This document shows positions 2,765 through 32,000 of a stretch of DNA of 32,000 nt, piece after piece. The position numbers were made by a program, and so were the translations under genes. Under the pieces are notes generated by a model. It had not been told where the DNA came from and ran no database searches. It saw only the letters and a list, made by a program, of their open reading frames with translations. This DNA is from Thermoproteota archaeon (GTDB lineage: Archaea; Thermoproteota; Nitrososphaeria; Nitrososphaerales; Nitrosopumilaceae): positions 316,380-348,379 of the forward strand of contig QQVN01000005.1 in assembly GCA_003352285.1 (NCBI GenBank). The letters are read 5' to 3'. The stretch's first letter is position 1, and the number at the start of each line of letters is the position of its first letter.

Positions 2765-3004
2765 TTAGGTTTGGCCTTCGATGCCCATTAATGTTAGAGT
2801 TGATCTAATTTTTTCGATCTTTCTAATTTTCCATGTAATGGTTTCTCTCAGTTTTTCCACGGTATCTGATTCAATTTTTGCTAAAATATCATATGCGCCA
2901 AAAGTTCCATGTACTTCACGTACGCCTTCAAGGCCTTTTAGTTGCTGAATGATAGCTTCCTCAGAACCGAGTTCACAGTTTATTAAAACATAAGCTGTTG
3001 CCAT
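2765..3004 (-). CDS. stand-alone Lrp/AsnC-type ligand-binding (RAM) domain protein
   Basis: 79 aa: MATAYVLINCELGSEEAIIQQLKGLEGVREVHGTFGAYDILAKIE.. This is the typical AsnC_trans_reg beta-alpha-beta-beta-alpha-beta pattern, without an HTH. Confidence 0.75.
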   Translation of the reverse strand: MATAYVLINCELGSEEAIIQQLKGLEGVREVHGTFGAYDILAKIESDTVEKLRETITWKIRKIEKIRSTLTLMGIEGQT

Positions 3005-3047
3005 GTACTGCTTTAGGAAATACGGCTATATCAATAAACCGATTTGG

Positions 3048-3455
3048 CTATTTTGATAATTTTAGGATGCTGCTCCAGATTTCTTTGGGAACTGGCATGA
3101 CAGATAGCCTAGAAATGCGTAATAATTCCCAGTTTTTGAATTTTTTTTGTTTTTTCATTTCAGATAAGGTTACTGGATTTTTGAGCTGACTCTTGTATTT
3201 TACATCTACAACAACATATCTTTCATCTTTTTCATCAGGATTTGGGTAGGGGTTTTTTGTAACTTCCATAATTCCCACGGCTTGTTTCTGATCACCTGAA
3301 TGATAAAAGAGAATTTGATCACCCTTTTTCATATTGCGTATATGTTTTAGTGCCAAATTGTTATGCACACCATCCCAGACAGTTTTCTTTTCTTTCTTTA
3401 GAGTTTCAAAATTGTAACTTGAAGGTTCTTGTTTTGCAAGCCAGTAGTTTACCAT
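3048..3455 (-). CDS. EVE (PUA-like) domain protein
   Basis: From the internal ATG at 3455 the protein reads MVNYWLAKQEPSSYNFETLKKEKKTVWDGVHNNLALKHIRNMKKGDQILFYHSG.., the canonical EVE-domain N-terminus. The 30-codon extension to 3545 in the ORF track overlaps a structured GC-rich island and is probably not coding. Confidence 0.8.
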   Translation of the reverse strand: MVNYWLAKQEPSSYNFETLKKEKKTVWDGVHNNLALKHIRNMKKGDQILFYHSGDQKQAVGIMEVTKNPYPNPDEKDERYVVVDVKYKSQLKNPVTLSEMKKQKKFKNWELLRISRLSVMPVPKEIWSSILKLSK

Positions 3456-3498
3456 GATAATCCTATCAATACAGGGTTTAATTATTTTTGTAAGAGAA

Positions 3499-3654
3499 TG
3501 TTCCCCGGTTCTGACTCGCGCAAGATCATTGGTGTTTTTAGCCATTAACCTCCTTGGGTTTTTCTAACCGGGGTTGCCCGAATGTAGCACACCTGGGTGA
3601 ATTAGAAATCATTGAAATCAATACGATCACCTCATCCCAATCCGTCTGCGTGCT
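3499..3654 (-). ncRNA. candidate structured small RNA: two roughly 70-nt hairpins, each immediately followed by ACA (H/ACA-like)
   Basis: The region is a GC-rich island in AT-rich DNA. Hairpin 2 has ccccggtt (3573..3566) pairing perfectly with aaccgggg (3510..3503), then A, then ACA (3501..3499). Hairpin 1 has agcacgc (3654..3648) pairing with gtgtgct (3592..3586, one G-U), then ACA (3585..3583). Hairpin 2 also has an 11-bp upper stem, gaggttaatgg/ccaatgatctt. The pocket geometry is not textbook. Confidence 0.3.
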
Positions 3655-3690
3655 TGCTCTTGGGCACAATACAATACACTTGGTCAAATA

Positions 3691-5313
3691 TTAACCAGGC
3701 AGGTTGATTTCAAATCCCACTACTGGAACTCTAATCTTAAAATTTTCAATTATTGCTGAATCGATTTCTCCAATTGTTCCAATTGAGTTTCCATTAAGAA
3801 TGACTTTGGCTGATCTGCCTTTTTTGAACAAAGATTCCGAGGATGTCTTTGTCAGTGAGTCAAGATTGAATGAGGTCTTTAACATAGATTGCATGATAGA
3901 TTTTATTTCAGTGAAATTTGATGATTGGTGAGCACTGACACAAGCAACATGTGTTGTTTCATTAATTGGATTTCCAAGTGTAAAGACTGTGCCGATTTCA
4001 AATAATTTCTGAGGGTACTGCTCATGAATATTTCGTGAGAGATTTTCAATCAATCCAGGAAGAAGTGAATCACGTAAAATTGTGTGCTCTTGACTTTTGG
4101 AATCAACGACAGAAATACTATCTTTCGGATCTCTTTGAGTAGAACTGTAAAGAATTCGTTCACTTGTTAAACTAGAGTTTAGTGCTTCTGTAAATCCAAG
4201 TCCAACCAAAACTGAACTTAGAGTTTTGAGTTTTTCTGAAAATTGGTTTTTTTGACCAACAGTTAATGATGGAGATAATATCGGTTCCAAGTTTTGAATG
4301 CCATAACCCAGTGCAACTTCTTCAACTAAATCCATTGGGCCAAAGATATCAAATCTATATCGAGGTATAGTACACTCGATCTTTTTTCCTTTAGCGATTG
4401 CATCTAATCTAGATTTTTTCAAGCATGAGCATATCAGTGATGTAGTAAGATTTGTTCCAAGTGTTTTGTTTACTAGGTCAGAGTCAAGCGTCAGTTTTTT
4501 ATTTTTTAATAATGGTGAAGAGTTTTTGGAGCCAGAAATTTTTACCGACTCTAGCTTAAATCCTGCACTTTGAAGAATGGTTGCAACTACAGAAAGAGCG
4601 TCTTCTACATCATCTTTGTTCAGACCAGTAACTTCTACAAGAAGATTCTTTGTTTTAGTAGTAACAGTAGTCATTGAAGCGTTGATTATTGGAGGAAATG
4701 ATACGGTTTTTCCTTTGGAGTCTATAATAATTGGAAATTTCGTTGAATTTCCAAGTATACTGCCATAATCTCTTCCAACATCGGTGTTTTTTAGAATATC
4801 AGTTATTGTTTGCTCTTGATTTGAATTAAGTGGAGTAAATTTATGATTTTTATCAGTTGTAGAATACTTAAGTGGAAAGGATATTGTGTCTAGGTCGTGA
4901 ATACCAATAGAGGATTTTTTTCTTCGTCGGCCAATACCAAAATGAAGATCTTCTTGCATGACCATCAGCTGTTTAATTGTGGCATCATCAATTGAACCAC
5001 CTTTTGCAATTATGCTAGTAACATATGGTCTAATTTTTGATACTGAAGAATCTACCAGAATTTTATTAGAGCCAGATGAAATTTTTAGTTTGTATAGACC
5101 TTTTTTAGTGCCGAGTAATCCTTGCATTCCCAATGCAATTCCAAAATCAGTTGAATAGTCCGGTCGGTTAGGACTGTATTCAATTCTAATTTCATCTTTT
5201 GATTCAGACTCAATGTCTAATCCAAGATATGGAAGACTCTCAAGAATTTGCTTTCTTGAAACTTTACCGATAAGTTTCTCAAGTCTAGAATAACTTAATT
5301 CAACTACTGGCAT
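3691..5313 (-). CDS. pheT: phenylalanine--tRNA ligase beta subunit (archaeal type)
   Basis: 540 aa. The N-terminus MPVVELSYSRLEKLIGK.. and the B3/4 and B5 domain pattern are typical. It overlaps the pheS stop by 10 nt in the usual pheS-pheT order. Confidence 0.9.
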   Translation of the reverse strand: MPVVELSYSRLEKLIGKVSRKQILESLPYLGLDIESESKDEIRIEYSPNRPDYSTDFGIALGMQGLLGTKKGLYKLKISSGSNKILVDSSVSKIRPYVTSIIAKGGSIDDATIKQLMVMQEDLHFGIGRRRKKSSIGIHDLDTISFPLKYSTTDKNHKFTPLNSNQEQTITDILKNTDVGRDYGSILGNSTKFPIIIDSKGKTVSFPPIINASMTTVTTKTKNLLVEVTGLNKDDVEDALSVVATILQSAGFKLESVKISGSKNSSPLLKNKKLTLDSDLVNKTLGTNLTTSLICSCLKKSRLDAIAKGKKIECTIPRYRFDIFGPMDLVEEVALGYGIQNLEPILSPSLTVGQKNQFSEKLKTLSSVLVGLGFTEALNSSLTSERILYSSTQRDPKDSISVVDSKSQEHTILRDSLLPGLIENLSRNIHEQYPQKLFEIGTVFTLGNPINETTHVACVSAHQSSNFTEIKSIMQSMLKTSFNLDSLTKTSSESLFKKGRSAKVILNGNSIGTIGEIDSAIIENFKIRVPVVGFEINLPG

Positions 5314-13941: not shown

Positions 13942-14592
13942 TTAGTCCCACTTGGACCAAGCGGCCATCCATCTATAAGTCCACGTTGTTAATTTACATC
14001 CCAACGCAGCCATAGTTACAGACAACACTGCACCAGCACCTGCTCCCAGTGCTACTGGGCTGTTATAGAATTTACCTACTTGAGGTTCTATGGGTGTCAT
14101 GTATGGTGGTAATGTTGGTCTTGGATATTTGAAGGCCGTTTCTAGTGGGTCAGCTACCGTAATCAAGTTGACCATGTTGAACAATGGTAGAGACATTCCT
14201 ACCAGTACACCGCCGAACAGTATCAGTGAGTGTTTGTTTCTCTTTGTTGCCCAATAAGCCAAGTCCATCAACATTGCTGATGGTAGCCAAACTGGTGTAA
14301 CAATGAAGTCGTATGGATATCCGAGTGCAAACCATGCACCTTTTGCAATCCACGTGTATACTGTCATAATCAACGCATAATACGTTGCTGTTCCAGGAAC
14401 GCCTGTAAATGTTAGGTAATATGCTGCACCTACTACAAGCATTAACGTTTGAGATATTGAGAATACTACAAACGATGTCCAGGCCCAGTCAGTGTAGAAG
14501 ATATAGTCTCCTGCATTAATTGTTAACAAAGTCGAGTTAACCGCAACTACTACTATGAATAAGTAGTGGGTACATCGTCTTAGCCAGACCAT
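13942..14592 (-). CDS. amoA: ammonia monooxygenase subunit A (archaeal)
   Basis: 216 aa: MVWLRRCTHYLFIVVVAVNSTLLTINAGDYIFYTDWAWTSF..PLETAFKYPRPTLPPYMTPIEPQVGKFYNSPVALGAG.. This is unmistakably archaeal AmoA of the Nitrosopumilus type. Confidence 0.98.
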   Translation of the reverse strand: MVWLRRCTHYLFIVVVAVNSTLLTINAGDYIFYTDWAWTSFVVFSISQTLMLVVGAAYYLTFTGVPGTATYYALIMTVYTWIAKGAWFALGYPYDFIVTPVWLPSAMLMDLAYWATKRNKHSLILFGGVLVGMSLPLFNMVNLITVADPLETAFKYPRPTLPPYMTPIEPQVGKFYNSPVALGAGAGAVLSVTMAALGCKLTTWTYRWMAAWSKWD

Positions 14593-14615
14593 TATCAGGT
14601 AGAAGATAGGGTTGG

Positions 14616-14624
14616 TATATAAAA
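14616..14624 (-). promoter_or_regulatory. TATA box of amoA (ttttatata on the minus strand)
   Basis: It lies 24-32 nt upstream of the amoA ATG (14592). This spacing implies a leaderless or very short-leader mRNA. Confidence 0.55.
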
Positions 14625-14671
14625 TTTTAGACTGGTATGATGATCGTCTTTATCTAGAAAATGAAAAAGAG

Positions 14672-14689
14672 AAAAAAGTCCAATGGACT
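14672..14689 (-). terminator. hairpin plus T6 downstream of amoX
   Basis: On the minus strand the sequence is agtc-cattg-gact followed by tttttt, starting about 9 nt after the amoX stop. Confidence 0.45.
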
Positions 14690-14697
14690 GTATCTCA

Positions 14698-15060
14698 CTA
14701 TACACCGACGTATAGAGAAATAAACACAGTTCCTACTGCAGTACCAGCAAGTGTAGCGGCGATGATTCCGTTGCTATTCTTTCTAGAACCTTCTTCCATG
14801 ACTTTAACACAGAAGAGATAACCAATCGCCTCGATGATTGTGAGTACGATGAAAGCATAGTGTCCGCTTGGTGTTGGATATGCCCATGGATAATAGAAGT
14901 ATCCAGCTGCTGTTCCACCAAATGTTGCTAGCCATGCTGCAATGTATGATATTGTTATCAGGCCGGTCATGTTTTCAACTCGTCTGCCAATCATCTTTTC
15001 GACGTCAGCAGAACCAGTGCCACCTGAGCCACCTGAACCAAATCCTTTCGGAAGAGTCAT
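14698..15060 (-). CDS. amoX: AmoX (conserved small membrane protein between amoA and amoC in ammonia-oxidising archaea)
   Basis: 120 aa with a Gly/Ser-rich N-terminus (GFGSGGSGGTGS) and hydrophobic helices (ITISYIAAWLATFGG; YAFIVLTIIEAIGYLF; IIAATLAGTAVGTVFISLYV). Its position between amoA and amoC matches the known AOA synteny. Confidence 0.85.
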   Translation of the reverse strand: MTLPKGFGSGGSGGTGSADVEKMIGRRVENMTGLITISYIAAWLATFGGTAAGYFYYPWAYPTPSGHYAFIVLTIIEAIGYLFCVKVMEEGSRKNSNGIIAATLAGTAVGTVFISLYVGV

Positions 15061-15144
15061 TTGCGTTTATACTATGCAGAATACTTTTAAGTCTTTCTTA
15101 AAGGACGAAAAAGACTCGATCTAAGTTATAGTTAAAATATAAAG

Positions 15145-15162
15145 AAAAAAGTGCTTTCGCAC
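15145..15162 (-). terminator. amoC terminator: GNRA-capped hairpin gtgc-gaaa-gcac followed by T6
   Basis: On the minus strand the sequence after the stop reads TAG acaaaaac GTGC GAAA GCAC TTTTTT c. Confidence 0.55.
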
Positions 15163-15170
15163 GTTTTTGT

Positions 15171-15734
15171 CTATGGGATTGATCTGCTGTACAGTTTGCC
15201 TTCTAGGGCCATCTTGTACATTTCAGCAACATATGGATTTTCACCTGGTGTTTCTGCACCGAGTTCGACAAGTCTAGCATAGACTCTGACCACGTATGCA
15301 AGTGCGCCCATAAAGGCGACTACTACACCCATGTTAAACATCCAATGGTTTGGTACTGCAAAGATTTCTTCTACAAACCAAAAGTGCCACATCTCATTTA
15401 CTCCAATGGTAAACATGGTTGCCAAGTAACCTAGAATGGTCATCTTAAGACCAGTATTCATAGAGTTATTTGGACCTCTTAGAATTGGTACTTTTCTATC
15501 ATAGATTGCAACTGAACCCCATCCAAGTGGTAGAGCCACGAAGTGGGAGTATAGCCACCAGTGTGCTGGTGTAAATGCACTATCTCTAATAGAGGTTTGA
15601 TGTAAAGATCCATCAACGAAGTTATCTACTTCGACAGATGCTGCAGTAGAACCCATAGCGATGACGATAAGCCAGATTTTCTTTAGTCTCTGGATTTCGA
15701 CTTCTTTTGGGATTAATGCGGGCATTTGTGCCAT
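15171..15734 (-). CDS. amoC: ammonia monooxygenase subunit C (archaeal)
   Basis: From the ATG at 15734 the protein reads MAQMPALIPKEVEIQRLKKIW..HWWLYSHFVALPLGWG..NEMWHFWFVEE..PNHWMFN.. A TATA-like ctttatatt lies 23-31 nt upstream. The 46-codon extension in the ORF track runs through the promoter and was rejected. Confidence 0.95.
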   Translation of the reverse strand: MAQMPALIPKEVEIQRLKKIWLIVIAMGSTAASVEVDNFVDGSLHQTSIRDSAFTPAHWWLYSHFVALPLGWGSVAIYDRKVPILRGPNNSMNTGLKMTILGYLATMFTIGVNEMWHFWFVEEIFAVPNHWMFNMGVVVAFMGALAYVVRVYARLVELGAETPGENPYVAEMYKMALEGKLYSRSIP

Positions 15735-15756
15735 AGGTACAGTGTGTTGCCATCTG

Positions 15757-15765
15757 AATATAAAG
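15757..15765 (-). promoter_or_regulatory. TATA box of amoC (ctttatatt on the minus strand)
   Basis: It lies 23-31 nt upstream of the ATG at 15734, which supports the shorter amoC start. Confidence 0.5.
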
Positions 15766-15888
15766 TAAGAGTTCCAATTCTGAGTTTTTTTGTAAATTTC
15801 TTTCATTAAATTATGACTAAAACTTGTAATTTTCTGTAATTTTACAATAAAAAAATATAGAAATAATATCAATTTAGAAATGAATTTG

Positions 15889-15912
15889 AATGATAATCAT
15901 CAATGATAATCA
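15889..15912. repeat. tandem direct repeat aatgataatca (2 copies, 13-nt period) in the amoC/amoB divergent intergenic region
   Basis: The copies at 15889..15899 and 15902..15912 are identical and separated by tc. Confidence 0.8.
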
Positions 15913-15995
15913 ATAAAACTATTCTTAGATCTCTCACATTAAGGTAAAACATATAACGACGTATGTTACCTCACTGAGTAATTAACGGGATAACT

Positions 15996-16565
15996 ATGGT
16001 CGATAAAAAACTAATTGTAGTCGGACTCAGCGTCGTTTTAGCACTGGGAACCGTTGGATTCAACTGGGTTGAATCTATCCTTCCAACAGCTGAAGCACAC
16101 GGAGTTCAAGCACAACTGCAGAGTCGTTTCGTTAGAATTGAAGATGAAACCTTCAATCGACAATCTCTACAAACCGGAGAGACACTAACTGTACAAGGTA
16201 AGTTAGTCAGCCTCGTAGAAAGAGACCTTAGAGGATGGATTTCAATATTCTCTGAATCAACCAATGCTGGAAACAGATGGGAGATTCTAGCAAGAGATCC
16301 ACCAGGTAACGTCTTTGATATGTCTGGCAACTCAGTTACAGATTATGCAATCTCCGCAAAAGCACTTGAGCCAGGTGTATACCATGTACACACTCAGCTT
16401 AACGTAGCTCAAGTAGGTCCAGGACTTGGTCCAGGACAAACAGTAGTAGTCGAGGGAGAACCAATCATCAAAGAAATTCCATACACCAACATTGCATATC
16501 AATCAATCATCATTGGTGTTGGATATGTAATCACATTCGCGACACGACCCTGGCAAGTTATCTAA
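15996..16565 (+). CDS. amoB: ammonia monooxygenase subunit B (archaeal, short form)
   Basis: 189 aa. The signal peptide ends ..PTAEA|HGVQ, so the mature N-terminus is a His. YHVHTQL supplies an HxH pair, the ligand set known from the PmoB/AmoB copper site. There is a C-terminal TM helix (IIIGVGYVITFA). Confidence 0.95.
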   Translation: MVDKKLIVVGLSVVLALGTVGFNWVESILPTAEAHGVQAQLQSRFVRIEDETFNRQSLQTGETLTVQGKLVSLVERDLRGWISIFSESTNAGNRWEILARDPPGNVFDMSGNSVTDYAISAKALEPGVYHVHTQLNVAQVGPGLGPGQTVVVEGEPIIKEIPYTNIAYQSIIIGVGYVITFATRPWQVI

Positions 16566-22868: not shown

Positions 22869-23009
22869 ATTAAATAGGAAATCACACTTTCTATTTTTTG
22901 GGAATGAGGAAATAACAGCCGCTCCAGTCTGAGCAGCGCAAGCTTTGAAGATGCCGCGACGAACCGACCCAATTATAGATCCTTAAAATCAAGATTGTTT
23001 TAAATACCG

Positions 23010-24485
23010 ATGAACGAGGGGATGTTTGTGGCCGATTATGATGTCATTATAGCTGGAGGAGGATTAGCAGGAACAATTGCTGCACAATCAGTATCTCACT
23101 ATTCTAAACAAGGACTAAAAATTCTAGTTGTTGACAGAAACTCTAGTTTTCTACCAGGTAGAAAAAGTGTAGGAGGATGGATTTGTGGTGATGCAGTAAG
23201 CAAAGAAGCTGTAGACTACATGTCAGAAAGAATCAAGGTGAATTGGACGGATCCTGAGATTGAACACAAAGTAAAAGGAGTCATGGCATTTTCTCCTAAC
23301 AGAGAAACATCAATTCCTTTTGATGGGGACGGTTACATGCTAAATCGTCAAAAACTCCCAGAAAGGCAAAACGAGCGTTCCATGAAAATGGGAATTAACT
23401 TTGATTTTGAGATTAATCTTACAGGTCTAATTTATGATGGAAGTCAAGTAGTTGGCGTTCAAGGAGTGGATAATAAAAATAAGCAGCCTTACAAAAAAAC
23501 TGCAAAGATAGTGATTGATGCAACTGGAATTACATCAATGCTAAGAAATCAAATTCAAAACACAACTAAAATTGAAAGAAAGGTAGACAGAAGAGATGTG
23601 GAATCCACAGGCAGGCACATCATGTATTTTGAAAATGGTGAAGAAGACCTATCTGAATTTGACCCAGATTATTGTATCATACATTTAGACCAAGATATCG
23701 CACCAGGTGGATATGGTTGGGTATTTCCAAAAGGCAAAAACAAAGTAAACATCGGTCTAGGTGTTGAAAAAACTCTTCTTGATAAACGAAATAAGCGCTT
23801 AGGAAAAAACGATAACGTATCAATGTTGATTGATCAATATGTAGCACGAAACAGAGCTATCAAAAATCCCAAGCTTTCAACTGATCCAGAAGATAAGAAT
23901 AATGCAACTGGAAATTTCCAGGTGTCAGTTAGAAGACAAAACGACTGCCTAGTAGCTAATGGATACATGTTGGTTGGAGATGCTGCATGGATGCCAAAAC
24001 CATTAGATGCCGGAGGAATTGGTCCTGCACTAGTAGCTGGCACAATTATTGGAAAATGTGCTGTAGAGGCAATTCAAAAAGGAGACGTTACAGAAAAAGG
24101 ACTGTGGAATTACAATAAAGAATTCATCAACGAATATGGATACAAAACTGCAGGTCTTGAGGTATTTAGAAGATTAATTCAGACATTAACAAATGAACAG
24201 ATTGACTATGGAATGAAACACTTTTTGGGAAACTTGGATGTTGAAGCAATTTCCAAAGGGGAGCACCCAGACTTTAGTGCACTTGGGAAACTTGGAATGA
24301 TTATCAGAGGAGCACTAAACAAAAAATTAGCCGACGGCCTAAGATTTACTACACAGCAAAACAGATGGTTAACAGAACATTATTACAATTATCCAGATTC
24401 GCCTGAAGGATTTGCAGATTGGAGTCAAAAATTACACAAAGTTCTTGATGAATCTAATGCCAAACTAGAACAATTTCAAAACTAA
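23010..24485 (+). CDS. geranylgeranyl reductase-family FAD-dependent oxidoreductase
   Basis: It has the dinucleotide fold YDVIIAGGGLAGTIAA, WICGDAV (the conserved Cys), APGGYGWVFPKG and LVGDAAWMPKPLDAGGIGPAL. At 491 aa it is longer than typical GGRs and carries an extra C-terminal helical region. Confidence 0.8.
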   Translation: MNEGMFVADYDVIIAGGGLAGTIAAQSVSHYSKQGLKILVVDRNSSFLPGRKSVGGWICGDAVSKEAVDYMSERIKVNWTDPEIEHKVKGVMAFSPNRETSIPFDGDGYMLNRQKLPERQNERSMKMGINFDFEINLTGLIYDGSQVVGVQGVDNKNKQPYKKTAKIVIDATGITSMLRNQIQNTTKIERKVDRRDVESTGRHIMYFENGEEDLSEFDPDYCIIHLDQDIAPGGYGWVFPKGKNKVNIGLGVEKTLLDKRNKRLGKNDNVSMLIDQYVARNRAIKNPKLSTDPEDKNNATGNFQVSVRRQNDCLVANGYMLVGDAAWMPKPLDAGGIGPALVAGTIIGKCAVEAIQKGDVTEKGLWNYNKEFINEYGYKTAGLEVFRRLIQTLTNEQIDYGMKHFLGNLDVEAISKGEHPDFSALGKLGMIIRGALNKKLADGLRFTTQQNRWLTEHYYNYPDSPEGFADWSQKLHKVLDESNAKLEQFQN

Positions 24486-24519
24486 GACTTATTTGTAAAT
24501 TAAAAATTCTATCTTGTAG

Positions 24520-25317
24520 ATGCTACAAGAAGCAAGTTACTTAGATTGGAATGATTCTTTTAAAATTTTGAACAAGGCTTACGAATCTGGATTGTTTGTT
24601 TTAATTATTGGTCCAAAAGGAACAGGAAAGACTACTCTGGTAAGGGATTTTGCAAAGAGCAAATCAGTCCCATTAGAATCAATTAACTTTAGCCTTAGAA
24701 CAAGAGAAAGCCATTTGGTGGGAACAAAAACACTCAATGATGGATCAATAGGATTTGATGAGGGAATACTAATCAAGTCAATGAGGGAAGGAAACATACT
24801 ATATCTTGATGAGCTAAATTCTGCAGAAGCAGATGTTCTTTTGAGATTAGATGAAGCCTTGGATGATAGACGACAAATTGTGCTAAAGGAATCCACAGGA
24901 GAAGTTGTCAATGCAAAGGAAGGGTGGTTTGTTGTAGCTACAATTAATCCCTTAACTCATGTTGGAACAAAGGAACTTCCACCTCAACTGCTTAGTAGAT
25001 TTCCAGTGAGAATAAGACTAGAATATCCTCCAGAGGAAATTGAACTAGAAATAATAAAAAAATATGTCTCAGCATCACATCAAGATTCCTTAAAGCAGGG
25101 AATAAAATTGGCAAATACATTACGACAAGCAGCTGCAGTTGAAGAATTGTATTATTCTCCAAGTTTGAGAGAGAGTATTGCATTTGGGAAGATGCTAGAT
25201 TCTGGAGTAGCCCCAAAAGAAGCTGCAAACATTGTTTTTGGTAACGTGTATGCTCAATGGGGAAATGTGGAATATCAAAAAGTAAGCGACATCATTACCT
25301 CCATGTTTGGTAATTAG
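24520..25317 (+). CDS. AAA+ ATPase of the MoxR class, CbbQ/NorQ-like (AAA_5)
   Basis: Walker A is GPKGTGKT and Walker B is ILYLDELN. ATINP and LLSRF are also present. The 265-aa size is typical of CbbQ/NorQ. Confidence 0.8.
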   Translation: MLQEASYLDWNDSFKILNKAYESGLFVLIIGPKGTGKTTLVRDFAKSKSVPLESINFSLRTRESHLVGTKTLNDGSIGFDEGILIKSMREGNILYLDELNSAEADVLLRLDEALDDRRQIVLKESTGEVVNAKEGWFVVATINPLTHVGTKELPPQLLSRFPVRIRLEYPPEEIELEIIKKYVSASHQDSLKQGIKLANTLRQAAAVEELYYSPSLRESIAFGKMLDSGVAPKEAANIVFGNVYAQWGNVEYQKVSDIITSMFGN

Positions 25318-26883
25318 ATGCAATCATTACAAATTAGAAATGATTCTCTTGTTGAGATAGCAACCTTTCTAGCAAGACGGTGGTCTGAAAAAGAAAACAT
25401 CACAGTAGAATTTTCAGACAAAAGTGAAACAAAGACCCTGCTAAGAGAAAGTCGAATTATCTTAGTACCATTTGAGAAATTAAGTGGAGATGATTTTCAA
25501 AGATATAGGCAATTTAGAACTGCTCTTTGGTATGAATCAATGAGAGTGAAATTATGTAAGAAGATTCTCAGCAACGATCATGCGTTTGGGTTTATTCTCA
25601 ATACAATTGAAACAAGAAGGATTGAGCTTTTAGGAAGAAAGATTTGGAAAGGAATGGATGAAGAATTAATCTTCAATTATGCCTTCATGTGGAATTACAG
25701 ACCCATGTTAAACACAGTATATGGAAAAGCAAGAATGGTAGAAGCACTCTATCAATACTTTTTATTTGGTGATGTAAAAGGAGAAATTCAACCTAGTCAT
25801 CTTGAGAGAATTAAGAAAGCCTCTTCATACGCGTCTGAAATTCTACAATATTCAATTAAAAATGATCTCGATACAAATTGGTTAGAAACAAAAATTCCTG
25901 AAATAATAAAAATTCTCGATATTGATTCATTGATGACTATACCAGTTGCATTACCATGGATAAAACCAGGAATGGCCCTTACAGAAGAGGAATTACTAAA
26001 AGCTTTGATCAAAGTTTCAAAAAATCGGGAAAGTGATTTTGGAAAAATTGATCACGAGGCTGCATTTCGTGGAAAAAATATTTTTGAGGAATACAAAGTT
26101 CTCTTGGAAGAAAATAAAAAAAATCAAAATAAAGGATTAGGTACAGAAACGATTGGAGTCAAGATCCCATCCCAAACAAATGTTGATGAAACAACAATCT
26201 ATGATTTGGATTTAATTAATAATCTAAAAATTCGATTCAAAGATTGGAAATCTGGTTGGAAAGAACAGCATCTAAAAACAGGTGATGAGTTTGATGAAGA
26301 AACATACATTGAGGGGCATGAGCCATTTTTTACTGATCAAAAAAAGGTAATAAAAACAAAAATTGTAATTTTGTTGGATCATTCATCAAGTATTTCCTCT
26401 CAACAATTAGAATACAAAAAGGCAACCTTAGCTTTATGTGAAGTATTATCATATTTGAAAATTAATTTTTCTGTTTATGCATTTAGTACTGTGGATAAAG
26501 CGGTGATGTGTTGGTTAGTAAAACCTGATAATATGAAGTGGAATAATATATGCGCAAAACGCCTTACTCAAATTATTGCAAATGGTGGAACTCCACTTGC
26601 CGAAGTGTATGATAAAATGTATTCTGTATTACAATCCAAAAGACCAAATGTTTTTTTGACTTTAACTGATGGAGAGCCGTCAGATCCTAATGCAGTCCGT
26701 TCCATGATTAAATCATTCAAATCAATGGGAATCAAGATGGTTGCACTAGGATTAGGTCCAAACACCGTTGGTGCAACAATTATTGCAAGCAATCTCAAGC
26801 GCTTGGGTTATGAAAGAACTTTGGCAGTCAGTAGATTAAACGATATTCCAAATAGAGTTCTTTCTGTTTTACAGGAGCAATAA
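25318..26883 (+). CDS. von Willebrand factor A domain protein, NorD/CbbO-like partner of the upstream ATPase
   Basis: The C-terminal VWA domain has a complete MIDAS: ILLDHSSS (DxSxS), ANGGTPLAE and LTDGEPSD. Its ATG directly follows the ATPase stop (TAGATG). Confidence 0.8.
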   Translation: MQSLQIRNDSLVEIATFLARRWSEKENITVEFSDKSETKTLLRESRIILVPFEKLSGDDFQRYRQFRTALWYESMRVKLCKKILSNDHAFGFILNTIETRRIELLGRKIWKGMDEELIFNYAFMWNYRPMLNTVYGKARMVEALYQYFLFGDVKGEIQPSHLERIKKASSYASEILQYSIKNDLDTNWLETKIPEIIKILDIDSLMTIPVALPWIKPGMALTEEELLKALIKVSKNRESDFGKIDHEAAFRGKNIFEEYKVLLEENKKNQNKGLGTETIGVKIPSQTNVDETTIYDLDLINNLKIRFKDWKSGWKEQHLKTGDEFDEETYIEGHEPFFTDQKKVIKTKIVILLDHSSSISSQQLEYKKATLALCEVLSYLKINFSVYAFSTVDKAVMCWLVKPDNMKWNNICAKRLTQIIANGGTPLAEVYDKMYSVLQSKRPNVFLTLTDGEPSDPNAVRSMIKSFKSMGIKMVALGLGPNTVGATIIASNLKRLGYERTLAVSRLNDIPNRVLSVLQEQ

Positions 26884-26957
26884 TTTTTTATCAAAACTCT
26901 TAGCTTGTGAAAAAAAACCATATCTAGATATTTATTGAAGGGATCTAAAGTCACCAC

Positions 26958-27095
26958 ATGGGACTATTCAACAGGAACAAGAATTTGGAATTAGCAACTG
27001 TATGTAAGATATGCGGAATGGAATTTTCAGATTCTGAAAGAACACTCAGACATATGGTAAAGGCTCATTCAAAGCCTCGTAAGAGTAAAGGTTAG
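26958..27095 (+). CDS. 45-aa C2H2-type zinc-finger miniprotein
   Basis: My translation is MGLFNRNKNLELATVCKICGMEFSDSERTLRHMVKAHSKPRKSKG. The spacing C-x2-C-x12-H-x4-H matches the classical C2H2 finger. The ORF is below the ORF-track cutoff. Confidence 0.5.
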   Translation: MGLFNRNKNLELATVCKICGMEFSDSERTLRHMVKAHSKPRKSKG

Positions 27096-27147: not shown

Positions 27148-28689
27148 ATGAAAGAAGTTGACACAAAGCTTCTTGAACGATTCAAAGAAGGGATTTGGAG
27201 TAAAGTTCCTCATCTAGATGAACAGGGTCACAAAGTCATTAATGCGACTCCTCTAGTCAATCTCACTGAAGATTTGAAGGAATGTGCGAAAAGCGTCTTT
27301 AAACTCAACTTATCAGACAAGGATTTGAGCATTTATGGTAAATTTGATTCTAAATTACCAACAGGCTCTATCAAAGTAAGGCCTGCAGTACACATTATGT
27401 ACAATGCAATAATGGCAGGTCATCTCAAGAGTGGTCAAACAGTAATAGAGGCAACATCAGGTAATTTTGGAATAGCTTTAGGACAATTATCAAAGCTTGG
27501 ATTAACAGTAGTTGCTCTAGTATCAAGAAAATTACAAGAAGGTGTTTTCAAGGAATTAAGAAATGAAAAAATTCGAATCATGGATTTAGATATGGATATC
27601 TGTCCCGCTCCAGGAATGAAAGATAATCCAAATGTTTTAGCAGCAAAGGCAACTGCAGCAAACATTCGTTCACAATTAGTAGAATTAGGTTTTGATCCTG
27701 TACCATTTGATAATGCAAGTAAAGAGATTGAATCACTTTTAGCTGCACAAGATATTATTAATTTAGCAAAGTTTCTTGCAAAGATATACGGATTATTTTG
27801 TCCAGAGCAGTATGATAATCAGCAAAATATCGAAGTTCACCGTACCATCACTGCCCCCGAGATTGACCAGCAATTACATGAAGAAGGAAAATCACTTGGC
27901 GATTATCAAGTTGTTTGTTCTTTTGGAACAGGTGGTACATCAGGCGGTATCAGCAAATACATTTCAGAAAAATATGGTAAAAAATCAGTTCACGTTGTAT
28001 TTCCTCCAGCAGGTCAAGATGTCGCAGGAATCAGAACAAAAGACAAAGCATCAGGGTTAACATTGTTTCAGCCTGACATTTATGCAGGACAGTATGAAAT
28101 AGATTTTGAGCAGGCAAAACATCTCCTAAAATTTTTTGTTGACAAAGGATACGATATTGGGGAGAGTAGTGCACTTGCATTATATGCGGTAATCCAAATG
28201 GCAAATTTTGGAAGTGTAGGAAATTTTGTAGTAATCATTGCAGATGGGATTGACAAATATAGAAAGCACTTGGAAGAGATGTCAAAAAATCAAAAACGAA
28301 CTCAGATTACTCTACAAGAAGCAGCATCACAAATTGACAATTACGATAAAATCATCTGGGTGCACACTCAATATACTCCAAAGGAAGAAGGAGTTGAAAT
28401 TATTGCCAAATCCCTCGGAGTAGATAAATCAAAGATTGTAGTGCCTAAAGCTAGAACAATTGGGGAATTACTTCAAACACAGCAGATCCCTGAAGAATTA
28501 AACAAGGAATTGAATGGTTCCAAGGGAAAGTCATTATTGGTCTGCATGGCAGGAAATACTTCGCTGATGGCAGTCAACGTTCTTGCAAGCAAGGGCGTAG
28601 TAACAGAAAGTTTGACTGGAGGAATTACAAATTTGCCTGAAGGTAGAGGTAGAAACCCAGGTGATTATATCAAAGCAGCAACTGAATAA
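27148..28689 (+). CDS. PLP-dependent cysteine synthase/CBS-family enzyme fused to a C-terminal rhodanese-like domain
   Basis: The PLP lysine block is PTGSIKVRPA. TSGNFGIALG and the phosphate loop SFGTGGTSGG are also present. The C-terminal roughly 120 aa contain LLVCMAGNTSLMAVNVLASKG, a rhodanese-type Cys loop. Confidence 0.75.
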   Translation: MKEVDTKLLERFKEGIWSKVPHLDEQGHKVINATPLVNLTEDLKECAKSVFKLNLSDKDLSIYGKFDSKLPTGSIKVRPAVHIMYNAIMAGHLKSGQTVIEATSGNFGIALGQLSKLGLTVVALVSRKLQEGVFKELRNEKIRIMDLDMDICPAPGMKDNPNVLAAKATAANIRSQLVELGFDPVPFDNASKEIESLLAAQDIINLAKFLAKIYGLFCPEQYDNQQNIEVHRTITAPEIDQQLHEEGKSLGDYQVVCSFGTGGTSGGISKYISEKYGKKSVHVVFPPAGQDVAGIRTKDKASGLTLFQPDIYAGQYEIDFEQAKHLLKFFVDKGYDIGESSALALYAVIQMANFGSVGNFVVIIADGIDKYRKHLEEMSKNQKRTQITLQEAASQIDNYDKIIWVHTQYTPKEEGVEIIAKSLGVDKSKIVVPKARTIGELLQTQQIPEELNKELNGSKGKSLLVCMAGNTSLMAVNVLASKGVVTESLTGGITNLPEGRGRNPGDYIKAATE

Positions 28690-31623: not shown

Positions 31624-32000
31624 CTAGATACTAATATTTTGATTTGTGTTCTTTAATTTTTCCCAATCTGCTAGAAAATTTTTCAAGCCAATATCTGTAA
31701 GAGGATGCTTTAGCATTTTACCCAATACATCAGGAGGTAAGGTTACAACATCTGCACCTATTTTGGCAGCTTCAACAACATGAAGAGGATGTCTCACACT
31801 TGCAACAAGAATTTCAGTTTTAAAAGAGTAGTTTTTAAAAATCTCTTTTATTTCTCTGATCAAGTTCATGCCATTATGACCAATATCATCTAATCTTCCA
31901 ATAAATGGACTAACATATTTTGCACCAGCTTTTGCAGCTAAAACTGCTTGATTGGAAGAAAATATCAAAGTTACATTAACAGGTATTCCTTCATTTGTTA
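31624..32000 (-). CDS. tal: transaldolase / fructose-6-phosphate aldolase family protein (C-terminal part; the N-terminus lies beyond the window end)
   Basis: The frame stays open to the window edge. It reads ..[62 protein letters not shown], the type 3B transaldolase/FSA signature. Confidence 0.88.

Follow-up and report, generated by a model that had tools for sequence, protein, structure and literature searches.

Which protein is served by an orphan pair made up of a MoxR-class AAA+ ATPase plus a protein with a VWA (von Willebrand factor A) domain in ammonia-oxidising archaea (AOA), organisms that drive marine and soil nitrification, is the question raised by a locus in a 32,000-nt stretch of Nitrosopumilaceae DNA (GenBank assembly GCA_003352285.1, contig QQVN01000005.1, positions 316,380 to 348,379 of the forward strand; the whole stretch is called the window below). 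In the window, whose proteins are 99% identical to those of Nitrosopumilus sp. b1 (locus L004), three genes follow one another on the plus strand: a geranylgeranyl reductase (GGR)-like gene (open reading frame 23010-24485; Pfam GGR_cat, E = 2e-16; Sulfolobus acidocaldarius GGR, SaGGR, PDB 3ATQ, E = 2e-63), the gene for a 265-aa, NorQ-like ATPase of the MoxR-class AAA_5 family (24520-25317; Pfam AAA_5, E = 1e-22) and the gene for a 521-aa VWA protein (25318-26883; Pfam VWA, E = 9e-8). Rechecking of the reading frames placed all three where an earlier note, made from the sequence alone, had put them, with a correctly reported 34-nt spacer between the GGR stop codon and the ATPase ATG and with the ATPase stop codon directly abutting the ATG of the VWA gene in a TAGATG junction (ggtaatTAGATGcaa). 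That note had read the last two genes as a Q/D-type pair with no known client, near which we find no canonical client gene in the 32-kb window, and had named the GGR as a possible operon partner or client, which does not survive the comparisons below. We think it probable that the pair is an independently transcribed, NorQD-like AAA+/VWA remodelling chaperone with a pseudo-peptidase adaptor domain, whose client is not encoded adjacently.

The relationship of the ATPase to NorQ was established by profile and pairwise comparison. Its Walker A (GPKGTGKT, residues G31-T38, 24610-24633, plus strand) and Walker B (LYLDELN, L94-N100, 24799-24819, plus strand) motifs are both present as the earlier note described, and together with sensor-1 N143, Arg finger R160 and sensor-2 R217 they are invariant in seven cellular and viral ATPase homologues; the helix-2 insert spans N56-G82. 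The best single-domain relatives in the PDB are NorQ (9qhd_A, E = 3e-20) and CbbQ (5c3c, E = 7e-17), followed by a MoxR-proper protein (E = 3e-11) and CobS (E = 2e-5), while midasin outscores NorQ merely because several of its AAA domains match. Aligned with the NorQ of Ruegeria pomeroyi, a genuine NorQ encoded beside norB on a megaplasmid, the ATPase shows 34% identity over 196 aa (E = 4e-28). It falls far below the NCBIfam cut-offs for CobS (TIGR01650, 25.5 bits against 558) and GvpN (TIGR02640, 36.4 bits against 266.8), and, as judged by such profiles, fits none of the curated families as a canonical member.

The VWA partner has the layout of NorD, namely an N-terminal domain, a linker, a finger and a VWA domain that carries the metal-ion-dependent adhesion site termed MIDAS, in a shorter protein (521 aa compared to ~640 aa). 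From N- to C-terminus and all on the plus strand, these parts are a zincin-like domain (residues 1-200, 25318-25917), a helical linker (residues ~201-296, 25918-26205) with two low-confidence loops where the AlphaFold2 (AF2) model dips (211-216 and 273-278), a pre-VWA finger (residues ~297-345, 26206-26352) and a VWA domain (26353-26883) whose C-terminal helix ends in ...VLSVLQEQ and which was delimited by Pfam, invariant columns and Foldseek. The signatures LLDHSSSI, GGTPL and LTDGEPSD, whose cores the earlier note reported, make up a complete MIDAS, with D354-x-S356-x-S358 (26377-26391), T425 (26590-26592) and D451 (26668-26670) invariant across 21 homologues of identity down to 22%. In the finger, G322 and D326 are invariant within a T-G-D-E-F-D-E-E motif. 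As a single sequence the partner found no PDB match and no NCBIfam match. The family profile matched NorD (9qhd_G) with E = 7e-10 over profile positions 304-467, covering the pre-VWA segment and the VWA domain, and, less strongly, CobT (9uka_G; E = 8e-6), in an alignment that takes in N-terminal positions. Comparison by hhalign with the R. pomeroyi NorD gave 97% probability (residues 308-492 to 390-603), and a Foldseek search with the full-length AF2 model (predicted local distance difference test score, pLDDT, 87) returned NorD chains as top PDB matches (E = 2e-9, 250-260 aligned columns). The NorD-aligned region covers the segment forming the NorD finger (NorD residues 403-448), which enters the NorQ pore (PMC13036017). 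The finger and the VWA domain thus align with NorD, and the NorD N-terminal domain is not detectably homologous, none having been found by hhalign or by the PDB profile in searches whose sensitivity was limited by a single-sequence template. The family is small, with 346 clusters at 50% identity among 1.84 billion representatives. PDB profiles, fold, hhalign and pairwise alignment agree on NorQ/NorD as the closest solved relatives, in line with the class assigned in the earlier note; on this evidence from sequence comparison and modelling, the pair is a real and conserved, divergent member of the known Q/D class.

The N-terminal domain of the partner differs from that of NorD in being zincin-like. 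On the helix equivalent to residues 59-79, distant homologues carry W-H-E-A-M-H, and the window protein has W71-Y-E-S-M-R76 (25528-25545, plus strand) in place of this HExxH motif; a second motif reads N95-T-I-E98-T-R-R-I-E103 where distant homologues carry N-I-I-E-D-x-R-I-E, and its glutamate E98, on the next helix, is invariant in the homologue alignment. A motif census of 140 full-length homologues found YExxR or a similar histidine-free form in every Nitrososphaerota-type sequence, a group that includes Nitrosopumilaceae, Nitrososphaera sp. and Nitrosocosmicus sp., and HExxH in nearly all others with an aligned N-terminal region. The AF2 model of residues 1-195 (pLDDT 92) has a topology that fits the zincin order of helix, three-stranded sheet, active-site helix and glutamate helix. 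Foldseek placed selecase, abylysin and jannalysin at the top, followed by M1 aminopeptidases, ArdC, FtsH and IrrE, with weak scores throughout (E = 0.3-0.7, probability up to 0.96). The likeness to the minigluzincins (selecase, proabylysin and projannalysin) extends to the non-AOA homologues, which have HExxH on the equivalent helix and the invariant glutamate on the next, whereas the window protein reads YESMR and would be at most a pseudo-peptidase. A profile of the N-terminal region found no significant match in the PDB (CobT merely at E = 0.25-1.7), and Pfam searches with 18 N-terminal domains gave marginal CobT matches (PF06213) in three of them, with a best E of 0.051, plus marginal zincin matches. 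Fold and motif together suggest that the domain is a zincin by fold whose AOA version is catalytically inactive, and since both zinc-binding histidines are lost throughout Nitrososphaerota, it should bind rather than cleave. This pseudo-zincin domain is a new element of the present analysis.

Conservation of the pair in AOA, on which the reading in the earlier note depended, is borne out by matches in 526 GTDB species genomes and by copies in Nitrososphaera and Nitrosocosmicus, whose ATPases are 70% and 63% identical, respectively, to that of the window. Gene order in Nitrosopumilaceae was drawn from the best 80 matching loci of a genome-contig scan, all of them from this family, and deeper lineages were reached individually. 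The ATPase-VWA coupling is kept at every locus examined, in Nitrosopumilaceae, Nitrososphaera, Nitrosocosmicus, two deeper lineages and four virus-like contigs. About 75 Nitrosopumilaceae loci share an 11-gene block of GAN, Pcc1, SerRS, S3Ae, an RNA-binding protein, GGR, the ATPase, the VWA protein, PALP, ASCH and the TATA-binding protein; as the whole block is syntenic, adjacency of the GGR to the pair carries no specific signal in Nitrosopumilaceae. At the Nitrososphaera (L091) and Nitrosocosmicus (L092) loci and in the two deeper lineages (L084 and L085), the pair is intact and the GGR is not adjacent, the upstream gene there being a hemerythrin, GTP cyclohydrolase I, a 4HBT thioesterase or an unrelated gene. 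Across these loci the ATPase-VWA coupling stands and the link to the GGR does not.

Features of the spacer also separate the pair from the GGR. Directly after the GGR stop codon and ~20-30 nt before the ATPase ATG lies an AT-rich, TATA-like element (cttatttgtaaattaaaaa, 24488-24506, plus strand), and two conserved variants of it, cTTATTTGTAAA and ctaatATTAAATATTGT, occupy the same position in the ~75 Nitrosopumilaceae loci, where the spacer measures 34-44 nt. This element may be the promoter of a leaderless ATPase-VWA transcript. In one Nitrosopumilus genome (L064), 2.4 kb of foreign DNA separates the GGR from the ATPase gene and the TATA-like element stays with the latter; the insert (2829-5208 of that locus) encodes a 295-aa Fic-motif protein (HPFGDGNGR) on the opposite strand, and beside the ATPase gene there is also a remnant resembling the 3′ end of the GGR gene. 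At the other end of the pair, a run of six T residues directly follows the VWA stop codon (26884-26889, plus strand, as read from the sequence). Archaeal transcription terminates at oligo-T runs, and this one is a candidate terminator of the two-gene unit, proposed from archaeal termination in general. The spacer element, its retention in L064 and the T-run together point to a separate and likely leaderless two-gene transcript as the probable arrangement.

The upstream enzyme is itself well described by its family. This Sulfolobus-type GGR homologue has the FAD-binding GxGxxG motif (FAD, flavin adenine dinucleotide) and the catalytic domain of GGRs, resembles a characterised GGR over its full length, and scores 316 bits, under the cut-off of 580, with the NCBIfam DGGGPL_reductase model. 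The family assignment made earlier is sound, and the description of the protein as unusually long at 491 aa was overstated, as it aligns end to end with the 453-aa SaGGR (residues 9-486 to 6-452), the extra length coming from a few short insertions. The gene probably begins at GTG 23028, giving 485 aa, in view of the NCBI call in locus L002, the start of the L064 orthologue and a TATA-like tttaaata sequence only a few nt before ATG 23010. We regard the GGR as probably a neighbour that lies outside the functional module.

The nearest non-AOA relatives of the pair keep the HExxH motif and were found on tailed-virus-like contigs (L086, L088, L089 and L133). On each of the first three, the HExxH-bearing VWA gene comes immediately after an AAA_5 gene, and the surroundings are virus-like, with on L086 a family-B DNA polymerase, the primase large subunit and a TGT-like gene, with a related layout on L088, and on L089 a terminase large subunit (E = 2e-32), a major head protein (E = 3e-12) and a STIV_B116-like gene; no GGR is present on these three contigs. 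The fourth is a viral contig from IMG/VR, found with the family-specific DNA pattern RLDEALDDR, and IMG/VR scans with HExxH-group and Walker-A-dominated patterns returned no close relative. A tblastn search of GenBank phages returned nothing for the VWA protein and, for the ATPase, distant CobS-like genes of cyanophages and a Gordonia phage alone. The viral ATPases are 60-63% identical to that of the window, only slightly less so than the Nitrososphaera (70%) and Nitrosocosmicus (63%) orthologues, and the viral VWA partners are 30-34% identical to theirs in the window. Neighbour joining groups the YExxR sequences into a monophyletic clade, to which the viral HExxH clade lies adjacent. The G+C content of the virus-like contigs is 47-57%, that of the Nitrososphaera locus is 57%, and by this measure the hosts are likely to be Nitrososphaera-like archaea. 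The viral ATPase homologues have an N-terminal extension with a CxxC...HxxxxH pattern. Published work has described cobS among the auxiliary genes that marine thaumarchaeal viruses carry and has linked viral norQ and norD to Nitrososphaerales, and a peptidase is a frequent annotation for viral cobT (PMC8651126), which fits the HExxH domain of the viral relatives. It seems that these published cobS/cobT and norQ/norD labels, for sequences available to us by description, refer to the same family as the AOA pair.

The mechanism that we propose is modelled on NorQD, the chaperone of non-haem iron insertion into the nitric oxide reductase cNOR (PDB 9qhd and 9qh6), as worked out by cryo-EM (PMC13036017). 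Besides the homologous finger and VWA domain, the window pair shares with it an AAA_5/MoxR ATPase of ~265-270 aa and tight coupling with the ATPase gene first. By homology, the ATPase would form a hexamer, into whose pore the partner would insert its pre-VWA finger, so that the motor holds the partner by the finger and the C-terminus. The partner would then bridge to the client, presenting the MIDAS site and offering the N-terminal domain as a second contact point, and ATP-driven rotation would remodel the client. The N-terminal domain would act as a binding module, giving chaperone rather than protease activity, and the pair would be transcribed from its own promoter, independently of the upstream GGR. 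The client would be common to Nitrosopumilales and Nitrososphaerales and encoded away from the pair. The domain architecture, the motif states, the homology to NorQ/NorD, the conservation, the viral relatives and the synteny were observed directly, and homology suggests the functions of a remodelling machine. In a sponge AOA, expression of the NorD-like protein has been detected (PMC6790972).

Several observations weigh against this proposal. Among 18 Pfam families matched to the ATPase at E <= 0.01, CbbQ_C (PF08406), the C-terminal domain of CbbQ, NirQ and NorQ, does not appear, and the alignment with NorQ ends at ATPase residue 202 of 265. In NorQ, a GRxLL/IxxxxT motif of the helix-2 insert contacts and grips the NorD finger (PMC13036017); the corresponding stretch of the window ATPase, G68-T-K-T-L-N-D-G-S-I77, keeps the G and one L, so the ATPase-partner interface may differ from that of NorQ and NorD. 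The zincin assignment draws on the weak Foldseek scores and on a motif that is present in relatives. The GGR stop codon is not followed by a T-run, so that read-through into the pair is possible. Finally, the search for a client by gene context yielded none.

Other uses of the same architecture were weighed against these data. That the pair might be a maturation chaperone of the GGR or act in membrane-lipid saturation, the three genes forming one operon, would account for the shared strand, the 34-nt gap without a T-run and the GGR-ATPase-VWA order in ~75 Nitrosopumilaceae loci, an order reported in Cenarchaeum too. Because these loci share the whole block, the adjacency is uninformative, and the four deeper loci and the viral homologues without a GGR, the TATA-like element in the spacer and the L064 insertion make this quite improbable. 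A CobS/CobT-type chelatase motor that handles cobalt or a different tetrapyrrole metal, the usual annotation of the viral homologues, is a reading that we consider improbable too, though a shade less so. The ATPase matches the viral family phrog_249 ("porphyrin biosynthesis", CobS) with E = 9e-37 and the VWA proteins match phrog_5298 (CobT) with E = 2e-5 to 5e-10, the family profile has weak co-linear similarity to CobT that includes N-terminal positions, three of 18 N-terminal domains weakly match Pfam CobT, and AOA are major B12 producers in whose viruses cobS has been reported. Yet CobN, CobS and CobT are reportedly missing from AOA, which are said to follow the anaerobic route with CbiX (PMC4303638); NorQ matches the ATPase far better than CobS does, the curated CobS score is far below its cut-off, the N-terminal profile matches CobT only at E = 0.25-1.7, and the cellular ATPase lacks the N-terminal extension of CobS. 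A MoxR-vWA-peptidase operon acting as an ATP-dependent protease or maturase, in which MoxR unfolds, vWA recruits and the zincin cleaves, has been proposed as a concept (PMC3495828), and the zincin fold and the HExxH plus downstream E-D kept by the viral and other non-AOA homologues would suit it. Both histidines are replaced in the window protein and in every Nitrososphaerota homologue, which makes proteolysis unlikely for the cellular pair; this very improbable reading may hold for the viral versions only.

Among these readings we give least credence to a literal NorQ/NorD accessory system of nitric oxide reductase. NorQ and NorD are the closest solved relatives and AOA genome papers use that annotation, but the same papers find norB and norC absent from AOA, no nor gene occurs in the 32-kb window or at related loci, and the divergence from NorD in the N-terminal domain, the partial helix-2-insert motif and the missing CbbQ_C match all point the other way. 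The Rubisco activase CbbQ/CbbO likewise shares the Q/O architecture and a good ATPase match and differs in that no Rubisco was found at the loci examined; the window partner is also ~250 aa shorter than CbbO. Heme-copper terminal oxidases belong to the same superfamily as NorB, and the suggestion that the client is an AOA-typical metalloenzyme complex whose metal site is loaded or repaired, with the terminal oxidase or ammonia monooxygenase (AMO) as favoured candidates, is one that we put forward tentatively, as an unlikely but worthwhile possibility. Only Nitrososphaerota-type sequences occur in the YExxR clade, which covers the two AOA orders; the Q/D pairs known so far act on metal sites (PMC13036017), and in Nitrosopumilaceae the amo cluster is found 8-10 kb upstream of the pair. 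The earlier note had named copper enzymes, AMO among them, as candidate clients. In the window this cluster (13942-16565) consists of amoA (13942-14592, minus strand), a 120-aa open reading frame at the amoX position (14698-15060, minus strand), amoC (15171-15734, minus strand) and amoB (15996-16565, plus strand). Against this, amo and oxidase genes are not linked to the pair in Nitrososphaera (L091) or Nitrosocosmicus (L092), where the proximity of amo is not seen. More speculative still, and in our view rather unlikely, is a single family history in which an ancestral MoxR motor with a VWA-tethered zinc peptidase was fixed by AOA in the dead YExxR form, as an essential assembly or repair chaperone of a lineage-defining metalloenzyme (AMO or terminal oxidase), while viruses keep the active form against the same host target.

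Midasin (Rea1), with its AAA domains and a C-terminal MIDAS domain, offers a further comparison. Its individual AAA domains match the window ATPase at up to 57 bits, the helix-2 insert of the window ATPase (LVGTKTLNDGSIGF) is nearer to that of midasin (YLGTYVTDDTGKLSF) than to that of NorQ, and the principle of a VWA finger in a ring is common to both. The window pair differs in having a single-domain ATPase and a separate partner and in occurring only in Nitrososphaerota and the viruses of this group. A part in ribosome biogenesis like that of midasin, considered for this similarity and for the S15, S3Ae and SerRS neighbours, was rejected, as the ribosomal-gene neighbourhood is confined to Nitrosopumilaceae. 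A role in defence was set aside too, there being no PADLOC assignment and the locus being a stable housekeeping region. The only neighbour kept across AOA orders is a convergent cluster of transaldolase, split transketolase and ribulose-phosphate epimerase, which lies directly downstream of the pair in L085, L091 and L092 and ~5 kb downstream in the window (31624-32000, minus strand); we take it as ancestral synteny and not as a functional clue.

Other elements around the pair were recorded as well. Between the RNA-binding-protein gene and the GGR lies a GC-rich element of ~70 nt (22898-22968, plus strand) of the form GGGAATGAGGA...CTGA...TGAAGA, 12 nt, CCGACCC. Its sequence hardly varies across 28 distinct Nitrosopumilaceae loci and shows features like those of C/D boxes and K-turns; of its eight sub-threshold Rfam matches, seven were C/D-box snoRNA families and none reached the gathering score. 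It probably represents a C/D box small RNA that lacks an annotation. Just downstream of the VWA gene, a 45-aa open reading frame (26958-27095, plus strand) encodes a C2H2-type zinc-finger mini-protein (CKICGMEFSDSERTLRHMVKAH), of a type similar to the N-terminal extension of the viral ATPases, and is confined to the closest relatives (L004, L005 and L019). It is followed by the gene for a 513-aa cysteine-synthase-like enzyme dependent on pyridoxal phosphate (27148-28689, plus strand), with a ~140-aa C-terminal extension that has a weak CARF-like match (PF23400, E = 0.0013); this gene occurs in most, not all, Nitrosopumilaceae loci and is inverted in some.

The orphan status of the pair is a known puzzle rather than a new finding. 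A cluster of norQ, norD and a flavoprotein was described in Cenarchaeum symbiosum by Hallam et al. (2006), and, as the PDB entries of SaGGR bear the molecule name "Conserved Archaeal protein", the Cenarchaeum cluster consists of the same three genes; later AOA genome papers noted that NorQ/NorD homologues are present and NorB is absent. The present analysis adds the pseudo-zincin domain, virus-borne close relatives whose motif is intact, and evidence pointing to a separate transcription unit. The adjacent GGR is removed as a misleading lead, and the labels NorQ/NorD for the cellular pair and CobS/CobT for the viral one are both unsupported as assignments of function. Experiments are thereby offered concrete features in the zincin domain with its dead motif, the finger and the MIDAS site. 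We know of no assembly factors of AOA metalloenzymes, and a chaperone pair that is present in both AOA orders examined and copied by viruses would provide a handle on how these enzymes are assembled.

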